Shown here: positions 2,620 through 14,711 of the stretch, one piece after another | Numbering within the stretch: position 1 is the first letter of the stretch | Layout of the letters: every line of letters begins with the position of its first letter | DNA from: an uncultured Candidatus Saccharibacteria bacterium | Lineage (GTDB): Bacteria; Patescibacteriota; Doudnabacteria; UBA920 | Direction of reading: 5' to 3' | DNA: 64,000 nucleotides | Assembly (NCBI GenBank): GCA_964453405.1 | Contig: CAYVOF010000003.1 | Span: forward strand, 4,286-68,285 | The notes under the pieces: model-generated | What the model saw: only the letters and a program-made list of their open reading frames with translations | Database searches by the model: none | What the model was told of the DNA's origin: nothing | Position numbers and translations under genes: made by a program

Positions 2620-2789
2620 GAAAACAGTCTTCAAAAGAAGGCTTTTTTTTGATGCAAAAGTGTGCTTGACAAAATACCATAAACATGGTACTCTTAGATG
2701 TTTGTTTGCAACATAACAAACCACCCTGGTCCAAAAAAGTCATAAGTGACTGCAGGATTGGGATGAAATCTCTACTGGAGGAAAATCAA

Positions 2790-3854
2790 ATGCCAATTTC
2801 ATTTGAATTTTTGGTGATAGTTTTAGCGATAGTTTTTTTCGTGCTGTATCTGTTATGCAATTTCGGCTTAGAACCACTTGTGATAAATGCCGCTAACAAG
2901 CGACTGCTTGTGATAGAGGGGCGAAATAATGTTTATGCAGTATGTAAACTCAGTGATTATCTTTTGCAAGCAGGAAAGGATGATGCAATGAGTTTCGCAT
3001 ATGAAAAAAAGACACAAAGCTTACCAGTTAAAGTTAAAGAGACTATGATCTTCACAGATCAAGACCTCCCACAACGCACTGGCACTATAGAGGACATGAA
3101 TAAGTTGATCCAGGAAAATTACCCAATGATTTACGGATCTCCTCGCGGTCATTACCATGGTGTTAAACGACACTTATTTGTGCCTTTTGTGGAAACAGCA
3201 ATCTACTCAGAGATTGAGCAGAAAACTTTTTACACCAAAATTATAAGTCTTGAAGAGGCTCATAAAAAAGTCTATGGTTATGCTGCTGATGAAAAAGTAG
3301 GAGTTGCTAGAAAAGTTTTTAATTACTTCGTAAAGCAGTTTGCGGATGAACGAAGTGAAACGAAATCGATCGTAAAGTTGCGACAAAGTCTTGCCTTGGC
3401 AACCATTTGCGCTGGTGGTTTAGTACTTATTCAGCACGCAGACTGGATTATAAAAAAATTACCAAACCCTACAAAAACTTCCACTTCACTTAAAATCGAA
3501 AATGGTAAAGTGGTTGCAGAAACGATCGCTGCACCCCCCGGTACTATCCCTATGATGCCAGACGACACCATGAAAGGCGGTAATATAATCGATCTTTGTA
3601 TCATTGTCGAAGCTCCTAAGTATGCTGGGAATGGATTATCTATGGTTAGAGTGAAACGAAAGTTTAATAACGATGACACTTTTGATATTCTAACTATTGC
3701 TTCTCCAGAATACATTCCGGGTGCTGAGGTTTTAGTCCGAAGTAGTCTGATTAGAGGCTCTGGAAATGTCAACGTACTGGAGTTTTGGATTGTTTCTCAA
3801 GAGGAAGCTGATGCATTAGTTTCGACTGGTCACTTTAACTTTCGTGAACCGTGA
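2790..3854 (+). CDS. hypothetical membrane-anchored protein
   Basis: GGAGG RBS 8 nt before the ATG at 2790 (MPISFEFLVIVLAIVFF...). The ORF track starts it at 2685. TGA stop. No recognisable family. Confidence 0.5.
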   Translation: MPISFEFLVIVLAIVFFVLYLLCNFGLEPLVINAANKRLLVIEGRNNVYAVCKLSDYLLQAGKDDAMSFAYEKKTQSLPVKVKETMIFTDQDLPQRTGTIEDMNKLIQENYPMIYGSPRGHYHGVKRHLFVPFVETAIYSEIEQKTFYTKIISLEEAHKKVYGYAADEKVGVARKVFNYFVKQFADERSETKSIVKLRQSLALATICAGGLVLIQHADWIIKKLPNPTKTSTSLKIENGKVVAETIAAPPGTIPMMPDDTMKGGNIIDLCIIVEAPKYAGNGLSMVRVKRKFNNDDTFDILTIASPEYIPGAEVLVRSSLIRGSGNVNVLEFWIVSQEEADALVSTGHFNFREP

Positions 3855-3876
3855 AATTAGATCCAGTGCTGGATCC

Positions 3877-3906
3877 CCGACTCAAACAAGAGTCGGGTTT
3901 TTTTAT
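3877..3906. terminator. bidirectional terminator between convergent genes
   Basis: CCCGACTC-aaacaa-GAGTCGGG followed by TTTTTTT. Confidence 0.5.
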
Positions 3907-3918
3907 TTCACAAAAAAT

Positions 3919-4935
3919 TCAGGCTACTGTCTCTTCGGTCTTAGCAGGAAAAATTTCTCTAAACCTGGTGTGTATAGCATCCAAATTTTTTACTAAGGTT
4001 TCATCTAACTTAAAAGATGGATTATCTATGTTCGGGTGCTTCATGGCATTTATTTGATCAAATAAGGATTTAAAAAAGGTAAGGGCTAATTGTTTTTCTA
4101 AATCAGAAATCTCTTCAGAATCAGGGTTTGTATATTCGTCCAAGATACCATTAAGCTGTTCAGTGTTAAGTGCAAAGTAAAAAGAAGGTAAGTGTTCGAT
4201 GGGAGCACCTAATAATTTTCGCTCGGTAATTTCAAGTCCAAAATTGATATCAGAACCCCCATTCCATAACTGGTGGAGCTGCTTTTGTTTTTTACTTTCT
4301 AATCTTGAATTTGATCCAGACTGGTATTCAGGTCCAGTGTGAACAGTATCGAGAGCAAAAATAATTTTCCCGGTTTTCTCGTCAATAAAAAATAGGTCTG
4401 TTCCATTAAAAATATCATCAAAATCGGTGGCGCCGACAACTTTAAAATCTTTTCCAAAGACGCGGTTGAGCAATACTGTGGCAGCCATTTCTAATTGTCG
4501 GTTCTTCTCTAGATTTTTTTCTTGTTCCCAATACTCCAATACTTGATCCAAAGTGGGTAGTTCAGTTAGTTTGTACTTGGTTTGATAGGCCTGTTGAATA
4601 AAGTTTATTTCTTCTTCGTTAAGATCAGATCTATCATCATCCATGTGATCACGAATGGCTAACTTTTTACCAATAAAAGTGATTTGGCGACGTTTTATGG
4701 CGTCAATAAATTCCTTATTTTTGTCTTTATCACCATAAAAACGTTTTTGAATACTACATTCATCATTTAAGAGGTTGTCGATGCCATACTTTTCCTTAAA
4801 ATCAGAGTTAAAAGCCTTGGCGTTAATAGACAGTTTACTTTGTAGTCGCTCAGAAGTTAGCTCTGATTTTTCTTTTGTTGAGAGGGGATATCTGGCTTCT
4901 TGCGGGACATGACCACTAGTTTCTGTAAAAGGCAT
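3919..4935 (-). CDS. hypothetical protein (338 aa)
   Basis: Long intact ORF co-directional with the upstream HD gene. No family recognised. Confidence 0.55.
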   Translation of the reverse strand: MPFTETSGHVPQEARYPLSTKEKSELTSERLQSKLSINAKAFNSDFKEKYGIDNLLNDECSIQKRFYGDKDKNKEFIDAIKRRQITFIGKKLAIRDHMDDDRSDLNEEEINFIQQAYQTKYKLTELPTLDQVLEYWEQEKNLEKNRQLEMAATVLLNRVFGKDFKVVGATDFDDIFNGTDLFFIDEKTGKIIFALDTVHTGPEYQSGSNSRLESKKQKQLHQLWNGGSDINFGLEITERKLLGAPIEHLPSFYFALNTEQLNGILDEYTNPDSEEISDLEKQLALTFFKSLFDQINAMKHPNIDNPSFKLDETLVKNLDAIHTRFREIFPAKTEETVA

Positions 4936-4985
4936 TGATTTAGTAGAATTCTTAATTTATCTAATTATATCAAAAAAAGACCAAA

Positions 4986-5585
4986 CTAGTTGGCCTTACT
5001 CCGTATCGCTCCAGCCCATGGATCATTTTCGGCGAGAGGGTATTCCGGTACCACTCTAGCACTACATACGTCCATCATGTGACAAAAGCCAGCCAGCTCG
5101 TTCATAACTCGGCCGCGTTCGTTGTATTTATCAAATTCACCTTCAACATATTTAAATGCGTTAAGCAGCTGTTTGGTAAGTGAAATGAAGTACTCTCGAA
5201 TCTTGGCTAACCTGAACTTGTGTTGAGCAACCTTTGATCGCAAACTGGGGATTACCTCAAGATCTCCTTTTTTATTACGACGGTACTTCCACGGTTTTTC
5301 TATGTCGTGAATAAACAGAATAAGTAAGACATCTGACAGACTAAAGTTAACCGGTCGGCCGGTTGAAAGTAGTGTGGCATAGAAGATCACCGCGTAATTC
5401 ATTATTTCAACGAGATGATCGAGATAGCCTCCAGGCCAGGCTTGGTGATTATGAACCGAACCATACGCTTCTGTAAAAAGCTTGCGGTTGTTATGCAACA
5501 GCATCTTACAGCCGATGCGATTGGGTTCATCTATTAGCTCAAGTAATTCGTCTATGGTGAGACGAGTAGGTTGTTTATTGTTCAT
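4986..5585 (-). CDS. HD-domain phosphohydrolase (YfbR-like nucleotidase fold)
   Basis: H...HD motifs (SVHNHQAWPGGYLDHLVEIM, LILFIHDIEKP) arranged as in HD 5'-deoxynucleotidases. Confidence 0.55.
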   Translation of the reverse strand: MNNKQPTRLTIDELLELIDEPNRIGCKMLLHNNRKLFTEAYGSVHNHQAWPGGYLDHLVEIMNYAVIFYATLLSTGRPVNFSLSDVLLILFIHDIEKPWKYRRNKKGDLEVIPSLRSKVAQHKFRLAKIREYFISLTKQLLNAFKYVEGEFDKYNERGRVMNELAGFCHMMDVCSARVVPEYPLAENDPWAGAIRSKAN

Positions 5586-5640
5586 TATTCCTCCTGTAAG
5601 ACTAATTATTCTAACCTAAATTAGTCTGGTTAGCAATACA

Positions 5641-5670
5641 AAAACACCTCAAAATAATTGAGGTGTTTTT
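5641..5670. terminator. perfect inverted-repeat terminator downstream of tRNA-Tyr (minus strand)
   Basis: AAAACACCTC-aaaataatt-GAGGTGTTTTT. Confidence 0.5.
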
Positions 5671-5672
5671 GC

Positions 5673-5759
5673 TGGTGGGCAGGACAGGATTCGAACCTGT
5701 GAAGGCACAAGGCCGGCTGATTTACAGTCAGCTGCGTTTGACCGCTTCGCTACCTACCC
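5673..5759 (-). tRNA. tRNA-Tyr (anticodon GUA), long variable arm
   Basis: Reverse complement folds as GGGTAGG...; anticodon stem GCTGA/TCAGC with loop C-T-GTA-A-A. Long variable arm, T-loop TTCGAAT, CCA encoded. Confidence 0.85.
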
Positions 5760-6050
5760 AAATTACTAACTTCAAAATTCTACCTTATTTTGGTAGTTTT
5801 GGCAACTGCTAATGGTCTATATAAAGAAGAAAAACGCTTGTGAGAGCGTTTTTATATGGTAAGATGCGTGGTTCTACTTGCCCTGAGATAAATCGCTGGT
5901 AAAGTAGAATTCGCGCATTAGTGGAGGGTTTAATCCCTCCTGAGGATTTTTGGTAGGATTACTTTCGTAACTACTTTTATCTTAAGGCGTAATCTAGACA
6001 AAGTCAAGGAGATATGTTAAACTTTGAAAGTTATTTATGCATCTACCCGG

Positions 6051-6397: not shown

Positions 6398-7072
6398 GTG
6401 ATTAAATATATGCAGAGATACAATCAAGAAACCAAACAAGAAAGTTTTCAATTGCGAAAGAAGGGTTATTCCATAATGGCCATTTCCAAAGAATTAGGGA
6501 TTGCTAAGAGTACAGCCTCGTTATGGGTTAGAAATGTTAAGCTTGACACTGAAGCTATTACGACGTTATCAAAAAATCAAAAGATAGGAAGACAAAAAGG
6601 AATCAATTCAAGACAACTTAGACTGTCCAGAGCATATAATTCTATCCAAAATATTGTTACAAATGATTTGAGTAATAAAGATTTGGACATTTTGACTAAG
6701 AGGTTACTCTGCTCATTCTTATATTGGTGCGAAGGGTCAAAAGCCAGAAGTGAGTTAAGGATAACCAACTCTGATCCAAAACTAATAACTGTATTCTTGA
6801 GATTATTCAGAGAGTCATTTTACTTGGATGAAAGTAAATTTGCTGCAACACTTCACCTGCATGAATACCATGATAAAAATGAAAGGTTGCTTTTTTGGTC
6901 AAACCTCACTAAAATACCTAAGAATCGTATAGGAATTTATAATAAGCCAAATACTGGGAAACGCAAGAAAAAAGACTACCCAGGGTGTATTGCAATTCAT
7001 TATTATGATGTAAAGATGTATGATATTTTAACTGCTTATTATACAAAGTTTTATGAAAATATGGGGGCGTAG
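6398..7072 (+). CDS. HTH-domain protein of unknown function (224 aa)
   Basis: N-terminal resolvase/transposase-like HTH (KKGYSIMAISKELGIAKSTASLWVRN). The last 10 nt overlap the 5' end of tRNA-Trp. It sits at the proximal edge of the cassette array. Confidence 0.5.
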   Translation: MIKYMQRYNQETKQESFQLRKKGYSIMAISKELGIAKSTASLWVRNVKLDTEAITTLSKNQKIGRQKGINSRQLRLSRAYNSIQNIVTNDLSNKDLDILTKRLLCSFLYWCEGSKARSELRITNSDPKLITVFLRLFRESFYLDESKFAATLHLHEYHDKNERLLFWSNLTKIPKNRIGIYNKPNTGKRKKKDYPGCIAIHYYDVKMYDILTAYYTKFYENMGA

Positions 7073-7136
7073 TGTATCGGTCGCACAAATCTCTCCAAAA
7101 GATTTAGGTCGGGTTCAATTCCTGACGCCCCTGCCA
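7063..7136 (+). tRNA. tRNA-Trp (anticodon CCA)
   Basis: Acceptor GGGGGCG/CGCCCCT, anticodon stem AATCT/AGATT, loop C-T-CCA-A-A, T-arm TCGGG-TTCAATT-CCTGA, CCA encoded. Followed by its own terminator hairpin. Confidence 0.85.
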
Positions 7137-7195
7137 CAAGAATCACCGCATAATTGTGCGGTGTTTTTGTATAGGGCAAGTGGAGGTTAGAACTA
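7110..7195 (+). repeat. array repeat R0 (founder copy: tRNA-Trp 3' half + terminator + inverted arm)
   Basis: GGTTCAATTCCTGACGCCCCTGCCA, then CACCGCATAATTGTGCGGTG-TTTTTGT, then ATAGGGCAAGTGGAGGTTAGAACT. Confidence 0.8.
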
Positions 7196-7260: not shown

Positions 7261-7833
7261 TTACAGAGAGTAAAAGAAGTAAAGAACTTCTTTAGAAAAC
7301 TTTGTTGGCGGACCATTATGCCATACGTACAATTCTGTCCCAGCGAAGGTAAAACCTTTTCGAAGAAAAAGTTTGCACGCGGAATGTTTAGTTGTATCCA
7401 TTTCTACCCTTATACCATCGCAGTTAGGTTCTTCATTAGCGATTCGTATTAACTCGTCGATAAGAGCATCGGAACAACCTTTGCCTCTAGCTTCGCTAGC
7501 AATAAGGATTCCCCAAACAATCATCACCTTAGTCATTTTTCTCTGTTTCCAAGAGGCGAGCACCCAACCCAGTGGTTTGTCATCTGAACAAACGACTAAA
7601 GCGATATACTCAGGATTATTGATATTAGGAAGAACTTCTTCTGTAATACCTTTGTAGTGGGTAGACTCGATAGTTACTGGTTCAGATAGCTCAACTTCAC
7701 TTAGATCTAGAGTGCTACCATTTAAAGCTAGGGAAAACATTTTGGTGCTAGCTCCAGTATAATTAAGTTTTTGAAGTTCGATACAATCCTGCTCAGTTGC
7801 TTTCCTTACACTGATATTTTTAGAATCATTCAT
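7261..7833 (-). CDS. GNAT family N-acetyltransferase (cassette 1)
   Basis: GNAT core (ALVVCSDDKPLGWVLASW...IASEARGKGCSDALIDELIRIA). GGAGG RBS upstream. Confidence 0.75.
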   Translation of the reverse strand: MNDSKNISVRKATEQDCIELQKLNYTGASTKMFSLALNGSTLDLSEVELSEPVTIESTHYKGITEEVLPNINNPEYIALVVCSDDKPLGWVLASWKQRKMTKVMIVWGILIASEARGKGCSDALIDELIRIANEEPNCDGIRVEMDTTKHSACKLFLRKGFTFAGTELYVWHNGPPTKFSKEVLYFFYSL

Positions 7834-7972: not shown

Positions 7973-8060
7973 AGTTCTAACATCCTCCACCACGCACTGC
8001 CAGCAAAAGCGTCGCATATCTGTGCGGTGTTTTTGTATGGGGCAAGTGTAGGTTAGAACT
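7973..8060 (+). repeat. array repeat R1 (full: left arm + terminator + right arm)
   Basis: AGTTCTAACATCCTCCACCACGCACTGCCAGCAAAAGCGTCGCATATCTGTGCGGTGTTTTTGTATGGGGCAAGTGTAGGTTAGAACT. Confidence 0.85.
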
Positions 8061-8093
8061 GCCGTGGTATAATACAATCAATTAAGAATACAT

Positions 8094-8708
8094 ATGAATA
8101 AAATATTATTATCTATTTCAATTGTTCTTTTCTTGGCAGTAGGTTGCAATCAATCACAACCAAATTCTATTACAAATCCATCTACACAAGATGCAATAGT
8201 GAAAACATCTAATTGGTTGATTTATGGCGATATAAAAATGGGGTATCAGATTAAATATCCTACTGAATTAGTTGCCAGACGTGTTGGTGGAGCATATACA
8301 GGAACCGCAAATAAGGTCCTAAAGGATGATGTGGTCTTTTCCCTATCTTCAGATTGGGCAAAACAGGATGCTATAAGTGAATCCGATACGAAAAGGTGTG
8401 GCAATGACTTTTGTACAGCAACACCGTTTACTCCCATGGGATTGTATCTGAATGTATTCAACAATAGCTCAGTAGGGGGAGGTTACGACGAAGCTGCATC
8501 CCTTTACGCAGCACATAAAGATATTATCAAGGGCTATTTATCGGAATGCACAGCCAATTCAGGGATTGTTCCCCAAGACAAAGCACCTGCAAGTATTTAC
8601 ATAAAACAGATTGAGCCTTCCAAATTCGTTATGGTATGCGCAACCCAAGGCTATGAATCACAAGCCCAGGCAATGTTAAGCACTTTCAATTTTACCAATG
8701 GTTTATAA
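8094..8708 (+). CDS. lipoprotein (cassette 2)
   Basis: Signal peptide with lipobox LAVGC (MNKILLSISIVLFLAVGCNQS). Confidence 0.6.
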   Translation: MNKILLSISIVLFLAVGCNQSQPNSITNPSTQDAIVKTSNWLIYGDIKMGYQIKYPTELVARRVGGAYTGTANKVLKDDVVFSLSSDWAKQDAISESDTKRCGNDFCTATPFTPMGLYLNVFNNSSVGGGYDEAASLYAAHKDIIKGYLSECTANSGIVPQDKAPASIYIKQIEPSKFVMVCATQGYESQAQAMLSTFNFTNGL

Positions 8709-8767: not shown

Positions 8768-8833
8768 AGTCCTAACATCCTCCACCACGCCCTGCCACAA
8801 AAGCACCGCATAATTGTGCGGTGTTTTTGTTTT
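8768..8833 (+). repeat. array repeat R2 (left arm + terminator, no right arm)
   Basis: AGTCCTAACATCCTCCACCACGCCCTGCCACAAAAGCACCGCATAATTGTGCGGTGTTTTTGTTTT. Confidence 0.8.
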
Positions 8834-8866
8834 AATAAAAAAAGGGAAGAGTTGCTTCCCATAATA

Positions 8867-9361
8867 TTATCCCCAAATTTTGACATAGATTTTCTTACCC
8901 GAAAAATTATCTTCCTGGTCTTTTTGTTCAAATTGGGTGCCGCAATTTTCGCATTTGTAAAACCCCCAACCTTTATCGTCATGCCCCCAGAGCTTTTGCC
9001 TCTTTTGCTTACATACAGGGCAATCGACACAGTACCAATTTTTTCGGTTTGACTCCGCCTGATGCATTCTCGATAGCAACAGTTCACCGCGTCCAGTCAG
9101 GGAATTCAACTCATACGACTTCATTGCTGTTAGTAACTCAATTAAAGAGCCACTTTCCCCACAATCTGTAACAAATTTGTTTTTTGCGATATCAATATGA
9201 ATGTTACACCCAAACATTTTACAATCTGTGATGACACACCTACCGTGCCAATTCCCGTCCTTGCCCGAATGGCCGTAGGTGTCGAACTCGAATGGTGTTC
9301 TAGTATCAGTAAGCTTTGATTTTGCTGTATCCATTTCGTCCTCCTCATTGAATTTGTCCAT
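8867..9361 (-). CDS. Cys-rich zinc-ribbon protein (cassette 3)
   Basis: Several CxxC pairs (CVDCPVCKQ, CENCGTQ). Start chosen at MDKFNEEDEM; the longer track ORF runs into repeat R3. Confidence 0.5.
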   Translation of the reverse strand: MDKFNEEDEMDTAKSKLTDTRTPFEFDTYGHSGKDGNWHGRCVITDCKMFGCNIHIDIAKNKFVTDCGESGSLIELLTAMKSYELNSLTGRGELLLSRMHQAESNRKNWYCVDCPVCKQKRQKLWGHDDKGWGFYKCENCGTQFEQKDQEDNFSGKKIYVKIWG

Positions 9362-9407
9362 AAATATATCATAGGTCTCAAATATTGACAACTTGCATTT
9401 GTATAAT

Positions 9408-9495
9408 AGTTCTAACATCCTCCACCACGCCCTGCCAGCAAAAGCACCGCATATTTGTGCGGTGTTTTTGTTTGAGGGCAGACAGGAATTGAACT
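9408..9495 (+). repeat. array repeat R3 (full, alternative right arm)
   Basis: The left arm and terminator are as in R1. The right arm GAGGGCAGACAGGAATTGAACT is an inverted copy of a tRNA-Trp-like T-arm/3' end (GTTCAATTCCTG...). Confidence 0.85.
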
Positions 9496-9498
9496 GCT

Positions 9499-10476
9499 GT
9501 GGTATTATTTAATAAAGAATTTAACATTGTGTATATGACTGAAAGAACAAACAATATCAATTTAGAAAACATCGGTATCAACAAAGAGAAAAAGGATATC
9601 CAGTCTGAAAAGCCCATCTTTATAATTTATCGAGAGAATGATCTCTATCGAGATTTTGTACCCAAGCTAGTAAAAAAATTAGAAGAGATGGGTAAAAAAG
9701 TAGAGGTAGAATCCTTCAATCGTGACCAAAATATAGATGAGATTGAACAAAAAGGTTCTGTACTTCTACCCCGCGAAAAGCGAAATGAAATAGCTCTAAA
9801 TACTACAGTCATTATGGATAATACTTCCGCAGAGGCGGTAGGCATGTGGCAACGTCAAGATATAAATCTTGATGACTTAGTAAATCAAATTTACTCCGAT
9901 GTATATTTAGGAAAAGAATTTAACGAACCAAGTCAACTTGAAAATAAAGAAAGTACTTCCTATTCCGAACTGCTAAACATTTTAGGTGGACTTATAGAAG
10001 AAGTGCGAAAAAACTACCCTAATTTAAATACTATAGCCTTAATAAATAATTCATTTGATGTACACGATAAGATTAAGAATACAGACGCAGAGTTACTTGA
10101 TGGGCTAGAAAATAATTTAGAGGCTTTCAACAATTGGGAACGGATGAATACAGAGAGGAAAGGTGCACATGCAGAAAGTCGAGAAATGCGGATATTAATA
10201 AATAGATTGAGTAAACTTATACCAACCGAAAATATTATTGTTTATGACCAGATTACAGATTTTGACAATGACGGACATACTCTAGTTATAGTAGATAGGC
10301 ATCATGTATCTGATGAGGCAAGACTTGAAAAAGCAGGGAAATACCGAATTATTCTTCCGATAGCTAGCGCTATGGAAGATATGGCAAAAAGTGGGCTTTT
10401 GAATCTACCCGAAGAAAAAATTGACCAAAAGCTTTCAGAATTTTTAGAAAGTAAATTTGGGAGTAATGGTCAGTAG
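9499..10476 (+). CDS. hypothetical protein (cassette 4)
   Basis: Intact 325-codon ORF. The start is uncertain: GTG at 9499 or ATG at 9535 (MTERTNNINLENIG). Acidic, no family recognised. Confidence 0.5.
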   Translation: MVLFNKEFNIVYMTERTNNINLENIGINKEKKDIQSEKPIFIIYRENDLYRDFVPKLVKKLEEMGKKVEVESFNRDQNIDEIEQKGSVLLPREKRNEIALNTTVIMDNTSAEAVGMWQRQDINLDDLVNQIYSDVYLGKEFNEPSQLENKESTSYSELLNILGGLIEEVRKNYPNLNTIALINNSFDVHDKIKNTDAELLDGLENNLEAFNNWERMNTERKGAHAESREMRILINRLSKLIPTENIIVYDQITDFDNDGHTLVIVDRHHVSDEARLEKAGKYRIILPIASAMEDMAKSGLLNLPEEKIDQKLSEFLESKFGSNGQ

Positions 10477-10500
10477 CTTGGGCTGCTATACGGTTAATTG

Positions 10501-10566
10501 AGTTCTAACATCATCCACTACGCCCTGCCACAGAGACACTCAACGAAAGTTGGGTGTTTTTGTTTA
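10501..10566 (+). repeat. array repeat R4 (left arm + substituted terminator)
   Basis: AGTTCTAACATCATCCACTACGCCCTGCCA, then a different hairpin CACTCAAC-GAAA-GTTGGGTG, then TTTTTGTTT. Confidence 0.8.
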
Positions 10567-10659
10567 TATGATCGTAAGCTATTGACTCCTACCCGATTTA
10601 TTTGTATAATATTTAGTCTTTAAAATAGACGGAAATCAAAGTTTTTTAGGAGGATATTT

Positions 10660-11805
10660 ATGAAAGAAGCAGTTGCTCCAAAGCGACCAGTCGTGAGGGA
10701 GTTTGAAGTAGAGATAACGCAACTTAACTGGCGTAGTCGCGTTCAGGAAAAAGTTGTTCCGGAAGTTATACCAGACGATATGTTTTACGAAACATCTGAT
10801 CTGGTTAATAAGTTATATCCGGGTAAAGAAATAGTTCATCTGGAACACCCTACAGTTTTTGGTCAACACAATGAAGGTAAGGGAACTTACAGCCTGTTTT
10901 TTAAAACACTGCAGATGTGCTTCAATAAGCACTTTCCATTTGCTTTTAAACCAGAAGCGTTGTGGTACTTAATAGTTCATGAAGTTGCTCAAGCAGTTCT
11001 TCTTAATCCGGAACGTTATCGTTTGTATTTCAGTAATTCAGACGAGCGTCAGGAGATCAAGCTCGATGTTGAATTAGGTCAAGGTGCGAAGATTGAAAAT
11101 TGGGGACCTCATATAATTCAACTTTCAAAATTATTGAAAGAGCAAATTCCTTCTGGTATTGGAGATTTGTTTGCAACTCAGTTTTCAACTTCAACTCCGG
11201 TCAGTGATTCGGCTATGGCTATTACACTGATGCAATCCGCAAGCCCGTTTTACGATTATCGTATGCGTTTATGTTGTGGACTTCCTTTGCTTCGTCTTGA
11301 TGGTCAATCAGGTGACTATGCAGTTTTAGTTGAAAGCGCTAAAGCGCTTAAAACAATCTTTAAGAAAGATCTTGGGTTGTATTTTGATCATCTTATTCCT
11401 GTTCTGGAAAAAATTGCTGATCAAGCGTCGGGTGCGCCAATCGATCATGAGTTTTGGGGATCGTTGTATAATCTGGACAGTGGTTCCGGAGGAAGTAATG
11501 GTTCGGATGGTCTTGGCGGTTGGATGGCATCGTTCATTAATTACTTGCGAGTAGTAAAAGGGAATTTGAATGAAGAGCCTCAAGCTGTAATGCAGGCTAA
11601 GCGTCTTGAGTATTATGATTGGAAAGATAACGACAAGAATCGTATTTCCATAGGTCAAGTTCCTAATCATGTGTCGTCAGTGGACTTTATTTTAGATGAC
11701 TACGGTAAAGAAACTCCAATGCGCTTTATCGGGGGAATGTTATCCGCAGAGGTCATCGATGGGTTTGTTACTCCAGGACTCTCTTATGGAGTTTTGGTAG
11801 ATTAA
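10660..11805 (+). CDS. hypothetical protein (cassette 5, 381 aa)
   Basis: Strong AGGAGG RBS. Gly/Ser-rich internal linker. Its own terminator hairpin lies at 11828-11860 (ATCCTTGG...CCAAGGATTTTTTT). Confidence 0.6.
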   Translation: MKEAVAPKRPVVREFEVEITQLNWRSRVQEKVVPEVIPDDMFYETSDLVNKLYPGKEIVHLEHPTVFGQHNEGKGTYSLFFKTLQMCFNKHFPFAFKPEALWYLIVHEVAQAVLLNPERYRLYFSNSDERQEIKLDVELGQGAKIENWGPHIIQLSKLLKEQIPSGIGDLFATQFSTSTPVSDSAMAITLMQSASPFYDYRMRLCCGLPLLRLDGQSGDYAVLVESAKALKTIFKKDLGLYFDHLIPVLEKIADQASGAPIDHEFWGSLYNLDSGSGGSNGSDGLGGWMASFINYLRVVKGNLNEEPQAVMQAKRLEYYDWKDNDKNRISIGQVPNHVSSVDFILDDYGKETPMRFIGGMLSAEVIDGFVTPGLSYGVLVD

Positions 11806-11971
11806 ACGATCTAAACAACTAGACTTAAATCCTTGGATTTTATCCCAAGGATTTTTTTGTTATTCTTAATACAGAAACCAAGATTTATCACCTCATGAAA
11901 TTATTGGATTTATAAAAAAGTCGATATAAGATGCGATATCAAATATTGTTTATAACGATTTTGGTATAAAT

Positions 11972-12032
11972 AGTTCTAACATCCTCCACCACGCCCTGCC
12001 ACAAAAAAACTCCTTGTAAGGAGTTTTTTTGT
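11972..12032 (+). repeat. array repeat R5 (left arm + substituted terminator)
   Basis: AGTTCTAACATCCTCCACCACGCCCTGCCACAAAAAAACTCCTTGTAAGGAGTTTTTTTGT. Confidence 0.8.
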
Positions 12033-12043
12033 ATAAAATGAAA

Positions 12044-12334
12044 TTATTCTTGACCCGTTTTGATTTCAATGGTTTTGCTTCCCACAGGAGCAGCTTTACA
12101 TCTTCTCATATCAGGAGATCCATACCCATTATCAGGACATATTGTGCCGTTTCTGCAATACCAATCTCCGTGAGGGGAATCGTATTGAGTACACAGGTAT
12201 GAAGGTTCAATATACGCTTTACTATTCAATCCAGCTTTATGAAAAGGTAATCCATATTGTGACCCGTAAATTAGACCTATTACTAAGCCCCCAATCGAGA
12301 GCAGGATACCGTATAAGGCTTCTTTTCTTTTCAT
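12044..12334 (-). CDS. small secreted/membrane Cys-rich protein (cassette 6)
   Basis: N-terminal TM helix, then 5 Cys in 60 residues. 96 aa. Confidence 0.45.
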   Translation of the reverse strand: MKRKEALYGILLSIGGLVIGLIYGSQYGLPFHKAGLNSKAYIEPSYLCTQYDSPHGDWYCRNGTICPDNGYGSPDMRRCKAAPVGSKTIEIKTGQE

Positions 12335-12491: not shown

Positions 12492-12579
12492 AGTTCTAAC
12501 ATCCTTCACCGCGCCCTGCCAGCAAAAGCACCGCATTTTGTGCGGTGTTTTTTGTTTGAGGGCAGACGAGAATCGAACT
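12492..12579 (+). repeat. array repeat R6 (full, alternative right arm)
   Basis: AGTTCTAACATCCTTCACCGCGCCCTGCCAGCAAAAGCACCGCATTTTGTGCGGTGTTTTTTGTTTGAGGGCAGACGAGAATCGAACT. Confidence 0.85.
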
Positions 12580-12597
12580 TTTTGATATAGTTGATTT

Positions 12598-13254
12598 ATG
12601 AAAACAGTTTTAATTACAGGGGTCAGCAGGGGAATTGGGAAAGCTTTGGCTCAAAAGTTTTTAAACGAAGATTACCAGGTAATAGGAACAACTACAGATG
12701 GATTGATAGAATGGCAACACGATAGTTTAAATGTGTTTCCTTTAGATTTATCAAAAGAAGAAAGTATAAAGAGCTGTGCCTCGGAAATTATTAAATTGAA
12801 CAAGCAGATTGATATTCTCATCAATAATGCTGGTATATGGTCTGGTGGTGAAGACGACCCAATGATATATATGGATACTTTTCGTAGGACGATGGAAGTA
12901 AATGTATTTGGCACAGTAGATTTCAGTGAAAGAATTATTCCTATAATGGTAAAGATTGGGCATATTATTAACATCAGCTCGAGAGCTGGCTCAATGTCGT
13001 ATGTGCATGATGCTGAATACCCAGACTACAAGATTTCTAAAGCAGCATTAAATATGGTAAATCGTATGTGGGCAATTAGAATGAAGGACCAAATTATTGT
13101 TTCCTCAGTTCATCCAGGCTGGGTTAAAACGGATATGGGTGGAGATGAGGCTGATATCTATCCAGAAGAGGCAGCTGAGGATATATATAACTTGGCAATA
13201 TCCAAACCTGAAACAGGACAATTTTGGTATAAAGGGCAAAAGTTTAGTTGGTAG
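12598..13254 (+). CDS. short-chain dehydrogenase/reductase (cassette 7)
   Basis: TGVSRGIGKA cofactor motif, NNAG, and catalytic YKISK (YxxxK). Confidence 0.8.
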   Translation: MKTVLITGVSRGIGKALAQKFLNEDYQVIGTTTDGLIEWQHDSLNVFPLDLSKEESIKSCASEIIKLNKQIDILINNAGIWSGGEDDPMIYMDTFRRTMEVNVFGTVDFSERIIPIMVKIGHIINISSRAGSMSYVHDAEYPDYKISKAALNMVNRMWAIRMKDQIIVSSVHPGWVKTDMGGDEADIYPEEAAEDIYNLAISKPETGQFWYKGQKFSW

Positions 13255-13263
13255 TTTGTAGAG

Positions 13264-13351
13264 TAGTTCTAACATCCTTCACTACCCCTGCCAGCAAAAG
13301 CACCGCATATTTGTGCGGTGTTTTTGTGTGGGGCAAGTGGAGGTTAGAACT
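13264..13351 (+). repeat. array repeat R7 (full)
   Basis: AGTTCTAACATCCTTCACTACCCCTGCCAGCAAAAGCACCGCATATTTGTGCGGTGTTTTTGTGTGGGGCAAGTGGAGGTTAGAACT. Confidence 0.85.
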
Positions 13352-13416: not shown

Positions 13417-13629
13417 ATGTCTACAAAAACTTTAGAAAAAATGGTAAAAAATCTCTCTTCCGAAGTAGCCACTCTACGCTCTTTGGTGATTAGTGTTGTC
13501 CGAGAAGAGAAAGACCCAGAAGGAGAATACCGTTCTAAGTTTGTTAAAGACATTCTGAAAGCAGTAAAAGAACCTGTCGTATATGAGTTTAAAGGAAGTA
13601 AGGATTTTCTAAAACTAATTCGTAAGTAA
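13417..13629 (+). CDS. putative antitoxin (cassette 8, gene 1)
   Basis: 70-aa ORF ending 2 nt before the RelE/ParE-like toxin gene. Family not recognisable. Confidence 0.5.
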   Translation: MSTKTLEKMVKNLSSEVATLRSLVISVVREEKDPEGEYRSKFVKDILKAVKEPVVYEFKGSKDFLKLIRK

Positions 13630-13631
13630 TA

Positions 13632-13895
13632 ATGCGAGTAGTTTACACTGAAAAGTTTTTAGCTCAAGCAAAAGAACTTCCTAAAGAAACACAAACTAAA
13701 CTAGCAAGACTATTAGGATTATTAGCAGTAAATCCATTTAATCCTTTATTGCACAGCAAGCGACTCACTGGTAAACTTTCTCAAGAATATTCATTTAGAA
13801 TAACTAGGGATTGGCGAGTCATCTTTATATTCATTTCCAAGGATACCATCAAACTAATTATGGCTCGGCATCGTAAAGACGTTTATCGAAAATAG
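13632..13895 (+). CDS. type II toxin, RelE/ParE (YafQ-like) family (cassette 8, gene 2)
   Basis: Typical C-terminal signature: ...SQEYSFRITRDWRVIFIFI...IKLIMARHRKDVYRK. 87 aa. Confidence 0.7.
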   Translation: MRVVYTEKFLAQAKELPKETQTKLARLLGLLAVNPFNPLLHSKRLTGKLSQEYSFRITRDWRVIFIFISKDTIKLIMARHRKDVYRK

Positions 13896-13981
13896 TTCTA
13901 ACATCCTCTACTACGCCCTGCCAGCAAAAGCATCGCATATTTGTGCGGTGTTTTTGTATGGGGCAAGTGTAGGTTAGAACT
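13894..13981 (+). repeat. array repeat R8 (full, last copy)
   Basis: AGTTCTAACATCCTCTACTACGCCCTGCCAGCAAAAGCATCGCATATTTGTGCGGTGTTTTTGTATGGGGCAAGTGTAGGTTAGAACT. Confidence 0.85.
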
Positions 13982-13997
13982 GGTGTATAACAAATCT

Positions 13998-14711
13998 ATG
14001 AATAGTGAAATAGAAAAACTGATTGAACAGGGTGAGATTGCCCGAGAACAAGATGATTTTCAAACTGCGTTAGTGAGTTTTGATAATGCTATGATTGAAT
14101 CGCTCAAAATTAATGACTATGCTTTAGCGGTTAACGCATTAGGGCATCATTTGCTAGTTTACGATAGATTATATAAACAGACGCAAAATCCTTCGTTTTT
14201 GGAGATGATGTTTATGGACACTCAAACAGGGTTGCGATTGGCAGAAAAAAATAATTTGCACGGACAACCCTTGGCGTTAATGACGATGCGTAGCGCAGAA
14301 TATTATTTGGACACCAAGGATTTTGTGCAAGCCGAACAGCTTTTTCAAAAGGCTTTTGATGAACTAACCCAAGACCAAAATGTTACTAACGAAGAACGGG
14401 CAGAATATTTAGGTCACTTAGCCGAAGCCGTGATCTATCAAGGGGATGTTAATCGATCGAAATCAATTTTTATGAAAGCACATCATTTACTTGAGCAGCA
14501 CTCAAATAAATTAAGAGACTTTCATAAACTAGTTATTCAAAGTGGGTTACTTATGAGAGAAGTTTACGGCTTATATTTAAATCATAAGGTTATTGAAGCT
14601 AAAGAATTAATAAAACAAATCGAACCGTTAGCGGTTAAGTTAAAAAATGAGCATAATATGGACGCGAGATATAATCAGTGGGTTGAGCTTAATGCTAAAT
14701 TGAATTCTTAA
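13998..14711 (+). CDS. TPR-like all-helical protein (distal cassette)
   Basis: Start at MNSEIEKLIEQ; the track's 13941 start lies inside repeat R8. Helical-repeat composition. Confidence 0.55.
   Translation: MNSEIEKLIEQGEIAREQDDFQTALVSFDNAMIESLKINDYALAVNALGHHLLVYDRLYKQTQNPSFLEMMFMDTQTGLRLAEKNNLHGQPLALMTMRSAEYYLDTKDFVQAEQLFQKAFDELTQDQNVTNEERAEYLGHLAEAVIYQGDVNRSKSIFMKAHHLLEQHSNKLRDFHKLVIQSGLLMREVYGLYLNHKVIEAKELIKQIEPLAVKLKNEHNMDARYNQWVELNAKLNS

Follow-up and report, generated by a model that had tools for sequence, protein, structure and literature searches.

The window analysed here is a stretch of 64,000 nucleotides (nt) from an uncultured Candidatus Saccharibacteria bacterium (contig CAYVOF010000003.1, positions 4,286 to 68,285 of the forward strand). 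It contains a tRNA-Trp gene followed by eight copies of a 30-nt motif, AGTTCTAACATCCTCCACnnnnCCCTGCCA (also written AGTTCTAACATCCTCCACCACGCCCTGCCA), the end of which resembles tRNA-Trp. The copies of this motif, called here the left arm or A arm, start at 7973, 8768, 9408, 10501, 11972, 12492, 13265 and 13894 and set apart about nine unrelated gene cassettes. The arrangement is read, with the odds slightly in favor, as an integron-like gene-cassette array in which the 3′ end of tRNA-Trp serves as the anchor. Seven of the left arms match the motif at three or fewer mismatches, against 0.00 such matches expected in the window, and the eighth, in repeat R7, carries a 1-nt deletion. All A arms of the window are confined to 7.97–13.92 kb. 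Each is followed by a terminator built of an A-tract, a hairpin and a T-tract, and the distance from the end of a cassette to its A arm is 0–15 nt.

The last 7–8 bases of the A arm are those of the tRNA-Trp end. The sequence CCCTGCCA forms the last 8 nt of tRNA-Trp and terminates seven of the eight A arms, with CACTGCCA at this place in R1. It occurs eight times in the window (0.79 expected), once as the tRNA-Trp 3′ end and seven times in the left arms. The tRNA gene, which is intact (ARAGORN; Rfam tRNA, 50.6 bits), itself takes the role of the left arm in a ninth repeat, R0, where it is followed by a CACCGCA/TGCGGTG terminator and a right arm. Neither the tRNA-Trp start of the array nor the tRNA-Trp-like end of the left arm was mentioned in the first-pass annotation of this DNA. 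The right arms are of two types. The A′ type, GGGGCAAGTGGAGGTTAGAACT, is an inverted and shortened A arm and is present in R0, R1, R7 and R8; the B′ type, GAGGGCAGACAGGAATTGAACT, is the reverse complement of a tRNA T-arm/acceptor-like 3′ end and is present in R3 and R6. The tRNA gene and the repeats are listed below.

7063–7136, plus strand: tRNA-Trp(cca), the 3′ end of which, ...CGCCCCTGCCA, replaces the left arm in R0 (ARAGORN, Rfam tRNA and the R0–R8 alignment).
7137–7194, plus strand: right half of R0, with the bidirectional terminator T0 (hairpin 7144–7163) and an A′-type arm at 7174–7194, GGGCAAGTGGAGGTTAGAACT.
7973–8060, plus strand: R1, full, with A arm 7973–8002, terminator 8003–8038 and A′ arm 8039–8060.
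8768–8833, plus strand: R2, with A arm 8768–8797 (AGTCC variant) and a terminator with the TAATTG loop of T0; no right arm.
9408–9495, plus strand: R3, full, with A arm 9408–9437, terminator and B′-type arm 9474–9495.
10501–10566, plus strand: R4, with A arm 10501–10530, a foreign hairpin CACTCAAC-GAAA-GTTGGGTG and a T-tract; no right arm.
11972–12032, plus strand: R5, with A arm 11972–12001, the same as that of R3, and a perfect bidirectional terminator A7-ACTCCTT..AAGGAGT-T7; no right arm.
12492–12579, plus strand: R6, full, with A arm 12492–12521, terminator and B′ arm 12558–12579.
13265–13351, plus strand: R7, full, with A arm 13265–13293 (the 1-nt deletion), terminator and A′ arm 13330–13351.
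13894–13981, plus strand: R8, full, the last copy, with A arm 13894–13923, terminator and A′ arm 13960–13981.

Downstream of R8 come TGTATAAC, 6 nt and then the ATG of a gene for a TPR protein.

The crossover point had been proposed to lie at the left-arm/terminator junction, and four concordant results place the predicted breakpoint at this boundary, directly after ...CCCTGCCA (...CTGCCA). In 44 copies anchored at the CCA, the 30 nt of the A arm carry about 1.5–1.6 bits of information per position and the following 30 nt carry 0.16–0.24. The junction is sharp: the per-position value drops from about 2 bits to about 0 exactly past the CCA. The A arms of R3 and R5 are identical and have unrelated continuations. 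The tRNA-Trp and the A arm are interchangeable as left partners of the same downstream sequence. A module starting with CAAAAAT-ACTCAGCA... follows tRNA-Trp in loci L004 and L005 and an A arm in L003, and a module starting with GACAAAT-TCACCCAAG... stands behind tRNA-Trp in L003 and L006 and, in L006, behind an A arm as well. In L014, a 6.3-kb type I restriction-modification (R-M) island lies between the two copies of a 167-bp direct repeat, which begin at CCCTGCCA, one past the tRNA and the other past the A arm, and in L034 and L026 the terminator of the tRNA recurs after the A arm. The sequence common to tRNA-Trp and the A arm is limited to CCTGCCA/CCCTGCCA, and the bases upstream do not covary.

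The two copies of the repeat in L014 lie at 562–730 and 6928–7094; the loop of their first hairpin is inverted (TGTAAAC vs. GTTTACA), and the rest is about 98% identical. Another pair of loci, L033 (1250–1270) and L036 (9117–9444), has a higA antitoxin cassette in common, with 86.6% identity. The L036 copy closes with a full A arm, and the L033 copy closes with AGTTCTAA, past which it diverges; a second breakpoint may thus lie inside the GTTCTAAC box.

Other copies of the motif were sought with a degenerate A-arm pattern in 185,579 species genomes and with a slightly looser pattern in metagenomes. The A arm is present in 35 other loci, spread over Patescibacteria: three loci in metagenome-assembled genomes (MAGs) of Candidatus Saccharibacteria, one short contig binned as Peribacteria and 31 metagenome loci. 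A hit in an Alteromonas genome (L002) was discarded as a chance match to the degenerate pattern. No A arm was found in viral contigs, and full-text literature searches returned no published description of the array. The tRNA-Trp is visible in 15 loci, and in all 15 the A arm lies downstream of it on the same strand, at a distance of 0.6–6.3 kb. The genes between the two differ from locus to locus and include methyltransferases, peptidase E, NUDIX, EamA, type I R-M, Fic, Fur and HigBA/HicAB; none of these intervening genes is an integrase, the islands of L014, L020 and L032 included. Most copies outside the window are without any right arm. Right arms recur in scattered lineages (L007, L010, L013, L016, L034, L036 and the Parcubacteria locus L041), and the right arm is therefore old but optional.

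The genes carried between the repeats of the window are the following cassettes.

7261–7833, minus strand: C1, GNAT acetyltransferase (Pfam PF00583, 1e-09).
8094–8708, plus strand: C2, putative lipoprotein with no Pfam family.
8867–9334, minus strand: C3, Cys-rich protein with its own terminator at 8844–8860.
9535–10476, plus strand: C4, orphan gene product (ORFan) of 313 aa (protein homology search).
10660–11805, plus strand: C5, DUF4419 protein with its own Shine-Dalgarno sequence and its own terminator at 11827–11854.
12044–12334, minus strand: C6, small membrane protein.
12598–13254, plus strand: C7, short-chain dehydrogenase (SDR), with its ATG about 6 nt past a −10-like box.
13417–13895, plus strand: C8, two-gene toxin-antitoxin pair, the TAG stop of which overlaps the start of the A arm of R8.
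13998–14711, plus strand: C9, TPR protein past the last repeat, with no A arm downstream.

Three of the eight cassettes are inverted. C4 has no homologue but itself among 5.8 billion proteins. The toxin of C8 gives weak matches to the YoeB, HigB and ParE families (RelE/YoeB-like), all below the Pfam cut-off. Among the homologues of the C7 SDR in other genomes of the candidate phyla radiation (CPR), none adjoins an A arm, and exact-protein look-ups for the same cassette in another context gave only 100%-identical short contigs of the same strain.

Repeats R2, R4 and R5 lack the right arm, and their interpretation determines what the basic unit of the array is. According to the first-pass annotation they keep the left arm and end at the T-tract, and the coordinates and sequences given there are correct. 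Both right-arm types and the reverse complement of the left arm were compared by gapped local alignment with the 150 nt downstream of each copy. The scores are 5–8 for R2, R4 and R5 (p = 0.08–0.99) and 20–22 for the right arms of R1, R3, R6, R7 and R8 (p = 0.00). As no right arm overlooked by eye was recovered by the gapped alignment, the absence is not an artefact of by-eye boundaries. The hairpins of R4 (CACTCAAC-GAAA-GTTGGGTG) and R5 (ACTCCTT-GT-AAGGAGT) are indeed unrelated; each of them folds and each has a T-tract, and both terminators are foreign to the terminator family of this genome. The CACCGCA/TGCGGTG hairpin is retained in R2, where the terminator has the TAATTG loop and the CCA/CA linker of R0. 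With the slash marking the junction, R2, R4, R5 and the tRNA copy R0 read TGCCA/CA, and all full copies read TGCCA/GCA.

The three copies had been regarded as truncated half-sites, formed by recombination or by decay after the cassettes were fixed. The explanation by decay assumes that R2, R4 and R5 were once full palindromic sites, the right arms of which were deleted or mutated after fixation of the neighboring cassettes. Repeats of this kind can decay, as is seen from the degenerate A arms at array ends elsewhere (in L006 around 6850, and in L003, read on the reverse strand, close to the 3′ end). In the window, however, no leftover similarity of the right-arm type is present within 150 nt, while the adjoining A arms are intact at 0–2 mismatches, and the hairpins of R4 and R5 have been replaced rather than eroded. 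The left arm alone is also the majority state in other genomes, which speaks against truncation of a longer unit. Finally, the cassettes next to the truncated repeats were predicted to be older, with more ameliorated composition, and no signal in this direction is found. The G+C content at third codon positions (GC3) of C3 is 0.44 vs. 0.32 ± 0.03 for the 31 long open reading frames (ORFs) of the window, which makes C3 the sole compositional outlier in the array; C5 and C6 are ordinary. Decay is thus a very unlikely origin of these copies. R2, R4 and R5 are complete A arms joined at the CCA to a downstream cassette with its own terminator and without the right-arm/promoter module. As left arms elsewhere mostly stand without a right arm, the latter is an optional module, and the left arm alone is the basic unit and not a damaged site.

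The neighbors of the armless copies are likewise non-standard. C3 and C6 lie on the minus strand, and C5 has its own Shine-Dalgarno sequence and terminator together with its own promoter of the sigma-70 type, TTGACT-17-TATAAT, at 10582–10610, 3′ of R4. The C6 ORF ends 12 nt from the R5 terminator. The R5 hairpin is the sole terminator available to this minus-strand gene, and the terminator is therefore tied to the downstream cassette. The proposal that the 'terminator here' function is conserved is partly supported: a terminator-like hairpin lies within 70 nt of all eight window copies and of 30 of the 45 copies in total, against 10% of random positions. The claim that the hairpin sequence is free to vary stands in general, the hairpins after A arms being almost all different. 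Under custom hairpin-plus-T-tract criteria, all eight window copies, including the substituted hairpins of R4 and R5, are predicted terminators. A built-in consensus scan returned 12 terminator-like sites in the window vs. 5.5 expected; these include R0, R2, R3, R6 and R7, and do not include R1, R4, R5 and R8. Terminators are alike within one genome and different between genomes, as expected if they join in, or get converted by, exchange.

The right arms behave as exchangeable parts. All four combinations of a left partner, a terminator (T) and a right arm occur: tRNA-T-A′, tRNA-T-B′, A-T-A′ and A-T-B′. The duplex formed by the own arms of a site is no more stable than that of swapped pairs, so that the sites need not fold into an attC-like hairpin. 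In the hybrid sites tRNA-T-A′ and A-T-B′ the arms pair weakly, at −6 to −9 kcal/mol vs. −13 to −18 for matched arms. The right arms reassort freely, and the window mixes cassettes of the A′ lineage with those of the B′ lineage. The right arm is accompanied by promoter-like sequence. In R1, R3, R6, R7 and R8 (five of six, R0 being the exception), the next gene after the right arm is on the plus strand, and in the same five repeats a −10 or TGnTATAAT-like box directly follows the arm. At window positions 8061–8094, 12580–12600 and 13982–14000, as well as in L003–L006, TG(n)TATAAT stands after the right arm, often with an ATG about 6 nt farther on. Such a short distance between box and ATG implies a leaderless mRNA, and by this sequence layout the right arm seems to bring along an extended −10 promoter from which these cassette genes are transcribed into leaderless mRNAs; the mRNA of C7 is probably of this kind.

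A box of the same type is present on the other side of the site. A TGnTATAAT-like box directly adjoins A arms that are preceded by non-coding DNA, as at R3, R5, R6 and many metagenome loci. In L033 (505–545), L028, L025, L014 (6870–6905) and others, an AT-rich palindrome, GGTATATAAATATACC (GTGGGTATATAAATATACCCAC in L033), precedes the A arm by about 35 nt; it is absent at the window copies. By its arrangement, the palindrome with the box resembles an operator plus a promoter that would fire into the A arm.

These features bring in an explanation at the RNA level, in which the A arm with its intrinsic terminator would be a functional 3′-UTR (untranslated region) element or a small RNA. Genes would be shuffled by homologous recombination between the conserved modules, and the armless copies would be the minimal RNA unit. 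Such a role fits the operator/promoter-like layout, the frequent terminator with its variable hairpin, and the composition of the A arm, in which C is frequent and G scarce, CCUCC forms the core and the end, ...CCCUGCCA, is like that of tRNA-Trp. All 30 nt are conserved, in the manner of a sequence read by a macromolecule. On the other hand, about one third of the copies are without a terminator, and no Rfam family matches even at E ≤ 1. By itself, the explanation also leaves out the confinement downstream of tRNA-Trp, the tRNA-like end and the 167-bp repeat of L014 starting at CCCTGCCA. An RNA-level module is doubtful as the whole account, and it does not exclude the array model. The A arm was also considered as a tRNA-like RNA, a tmRNA or another known RNA and rejected: ARAGORN and Rfam were negative, and manual tRNA framing fails. 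One A-arm-bearing contig, L022, has a LOOT RNA at 13971–14082 (Rfam RF03000, 78 bits), which is probably unrelated to the A arm.

The overall model, to which a probability of about 0.55 is given, is a tRNA-Trp-anchored array in which cassettes are joined after ...CCA to the tRNA or to the previous A arm. The cassette unit would consist of a terminator, an optional right arm with an extended −10 promoter, the gene or genes, and the A arm. A 'full' repeat would then be composed of the A arm that ends one cassette and of the terminator, right arm and promoter that open the next, if the latter is of the standard kind, and R2, R4 and R5 would represent the same junction with a non-standard downstream cassette. 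Cassettes may enter and leave by recombination between sites ending in CCCTGCCA, either the tRNA or any A arm. The reaction would be of the Campbell type, with CCCTGCCA as the common core, possibly together with the adjoining terminator. The agent could be a site-specific enzyme acting in trans, or it could instead be RecA acting on 60–170 bp of common repeat after natural transformation, which would be a sufficient alternative. Conservation of the whole motif suggests that something reads all 30 nt, either a protein or cellular machinery reading an RNA; the latter is conceivable in view of the −10-like box next to many A arms and of the AT-rich palindrome about 35 nt before them.

Several points weigh against this model. 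No tyrosine- or serine-recombinase domain (Phage_integrase or other) was found in the roughly 40 window ORFs scanned, and no recurrent enzyme family is present near the A arms in 45 loci. No difference in the presence or absence of a single cassette was found between near-identical strains, the other copies being 100%-identical short contigs. The conservation inside the A arm arises partly by construction, since the loci were retrieved with the A-arm pattern, and only the drop, which is abrupt on both flanks, is unbiased. A crossover core of 7–8 bp alone leaves the conservation of 30 nt across lineages unexplained. Moreover, duplication of the terminator as a target site would explain the observed sequences equally well.

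A rival view takes the cassettes as non-autonomous transposon-like units that run from the right arm, their left end, to the A arm, their right end. Such units would target the terminator downstream of tRNA-Trp, and their insertion would copy it into a long target-site duplication. The A′ and A arms do form inverted repeats around single genes, near-identical terminators stand on either side of a cassette (the T family of the window; L034, L026 and L014), and both arms of L007 carry matching changes, CGTTTAC and GTAAAG. The left inverted repeat is, however, absent from many cassettes (C3, C5, C6 and most other loci), no transposase was found in the ORFs scanned, and duplications of 35–167 bp far exceed any transposase target duplication known to us. 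Insertion of this kind is quite improbable.

One further gene of the locus deserves mention as a lead. HTH-X is encoded as follows.

6398–7072, plus strand: HTH-X, between rpmG and tRNA-Trp, with its stop codon inside the tRNA.

The protein has an N-terminal helix-turn-helix of the HTH_23/HTH_7 type and a 130-aa domain without known fold. Its invariant residues are W..E-G-x-K, S (within a near-invariant N-S-D-P), H-x-H-x-Y-H, K and Y-x-G. AlphaFold2 models of HTH-X (predicted local distance difference test, pLDDT, 93–96) gave no fold match in PDB or BFVD, and an identity as LAGLIDADG was withdrawn. There are 101 homologues, on contigs of up to about 0.8 Mb; all of their lineage-specific source names are Patescibacteria, with the exception of one Paludibacteraceae MAG. 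The order rpmG–HTH-X–tRNA-Trp is kept in four of four independent contexts fetched, and the gene ends at the TAG of tRNA positions 8–10 in the window and in three of these four. HTH-X was seen in the window, L038, L039, L040, L041, L012 and L026. It occurs without A arms in L038 and L039, and is absent at that position in L003, L005, L006 and L014. Because HTH-X exists without A arms, and A-arm loci exist without HTH-X at this place, a role for it in the array is only a lead.

Variable spots exist in the vicinity and in related genomes. At window positions 2620–6050, just upstream of the array, tRNA-Tyr has minus-strand orientation, and tRNA-Thr(ggt) is separated from tRNA-Thr(tgt) by three ORFs (389, 338 and 199 aa) that could not be annotated; in L005, L006 and L038 the same tRNAs are adjacent and on the plus strand. 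This region is a second variable or inverted spot. L039 and L040, two complete Nealsonbacteria genomes with 97–99% identity, differ at about 5.0–7.8 kb and 14.7–15.2 kb by replacements of small ORFs near rpsP and a MacB/FtsX operon. These spots have no A arms and represent other cassette-like spots in CPR genomes.

Patescibacteria (CPR) have tiny genomes and depend on hosts, and their acquisition of accessory genes is poorly understood. A broader proposal is that Saccharibacteria and other Patescibacteria have a dedicated gene-capture platform at the tRNA-Trp 3′ end, an analogue of the integron that evolved independently. It is put forward tentatively, with the balance tipping somewhat against it. 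In one version, an enzyme without relation to the known integrases would recombine the 30-nt motif with the tRNA end or with further copies of the motif; in the other, the motif would be a purpose-kept homology anchor for transformation-driven cassette exchange. HTH-X is one candidate component of such a platform. If the proposal is true, the conserved tRNA-anchored array would be a concrete and testable route for the flux of accessory genes in Patescibacteria, with defence, toxin-antitoxin, modification and orphan genes as its content here and a junction known to single-base precision. What integrons solve would then have been solved a second time, by independent evolution. The 30-nt motif is a simple marker for mining such arrays from any metagenome, and the junction of the left-arm-only copies pinpoints where DNA gets joined.

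Among known systems, the pdif (XerC/D) modules of Acinetobacter plasmids are small gene modules with inverted recombination sites that use a host recombinase encoded elsewhere. The array would be similar in its small gene modules bounded by inverted sites, but no 11-6-11 Xer-type site is evident, and its sites are 30 nt long, asymmetric and limited to one chromosomal locus. With terminator repeats of the repetitive extragenic palindrome (REP) or bacterial interspersed mosaic element (BIME) type, it has in common a conserved intergenic terminator of A-tract, hairpin and T-tract between genes. Unlike such repeats or dispersed miniature inverted-repeat transposable elements (MITEs), all eight copies lie within 6 kb of the 64-kb window in one array downstream of tRNA-Trp, where they are also found in other genomes, and the conserved part is the non-palindromic A arm while the hairpin is variable.

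The likeness to integrons is closer. In integron arrays and in clusters of attC sites lacking an integrase (CALINs), as here, small unrelated cassettes, often orphan or toxin-antitoxin genes, stand in tandem, each closed by a conserved repeat resembling a recombination site, and the content varies between related genomes. The full repeats of the window are imperfect palindromes of about 90 nt with RYYYAAC/GTTRRRY-like ends. The window could accordingly be seen as a CALIN, its full repeats being attC sites recombined in folded single-stranded form by an IntI encoded elsewhere and the truncated ones dead attC sites. The 88-nt site is imperfectly palindromic with extra bases on the left arm, AGTTCTAAC and GTTAGAACT resemble R″ (RYYYAAC) and R′ (GTTRRRY), and the small, unrelated cassettes include GNAT, toxin-antitoxin and ORFan genes. 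In the comparison of cores, A/A′ sites have TTCTAAC and GTTAGAA, each with 6/7 positions; B′ arms (R3, R6 and all of L003, L005 and L006) have ATTGAAC or ATCGAAC, without GTT, and an R′ is missing altogether from R2, R4, R5 and most other loci. No IntI was found in the ORFs flanking the array or in the roughly 40 window ORFs scanned, there is no attI, and the anchor is the tRNA-Trp 3′ end, with the tRNA itself as the left arm of the first site. The join falls inside the site, directly past the left arm, and not on the far side of the right arm. The arms reassort and pair no better with their own partners than with swapped ones, a behavior incompatible with crossover at the outer edge of R′. 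They are also often missing, most sites elsewhere being one-armed; the cassettes carry their own promoters, often with predicted leaderless mRNAs, and terminators, and three of eight are inverted. Membership of the integron attC class was rejected on the absence of IntI, the reassorting arms and the B′ arms without GTT, and a CALIN is an extremely unlikely identity for the array.

Integrative elements at tRNA 3′ ends, and the accretion of cis-mobilizable elements (CIMEs), offer the other parallel. Inserted DNA lies directly 3′ of the intact tRNA-Trp gene, accretion is in tandem, and a distal direct repeat of the last bases of the tRNA is present; the repeat of L014 flanks an island of 6.3 kb. 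The units here are, however, of single-gene size (0.5–1.5 kb), and neither the window array nor any of the islands of L014, L020 and L032 encodes an integrase. The distal repeat has only 7–8 nt in common with the tRNA and is itself a conserved 30-nt motif, and the identity runs downstream of the tRNA into the terminator, not upstream into the gene. The array thus departs from both systems in what defines them, from integrons because there is no IntI and the arms are not kept paired, and from tRNA-targeting elements because the units have no integrase and the 30-nt site is not tRNA-derived; in its working it is like an integron array combined with tandem, integrase-less accretion at a tRNA 3′ end.

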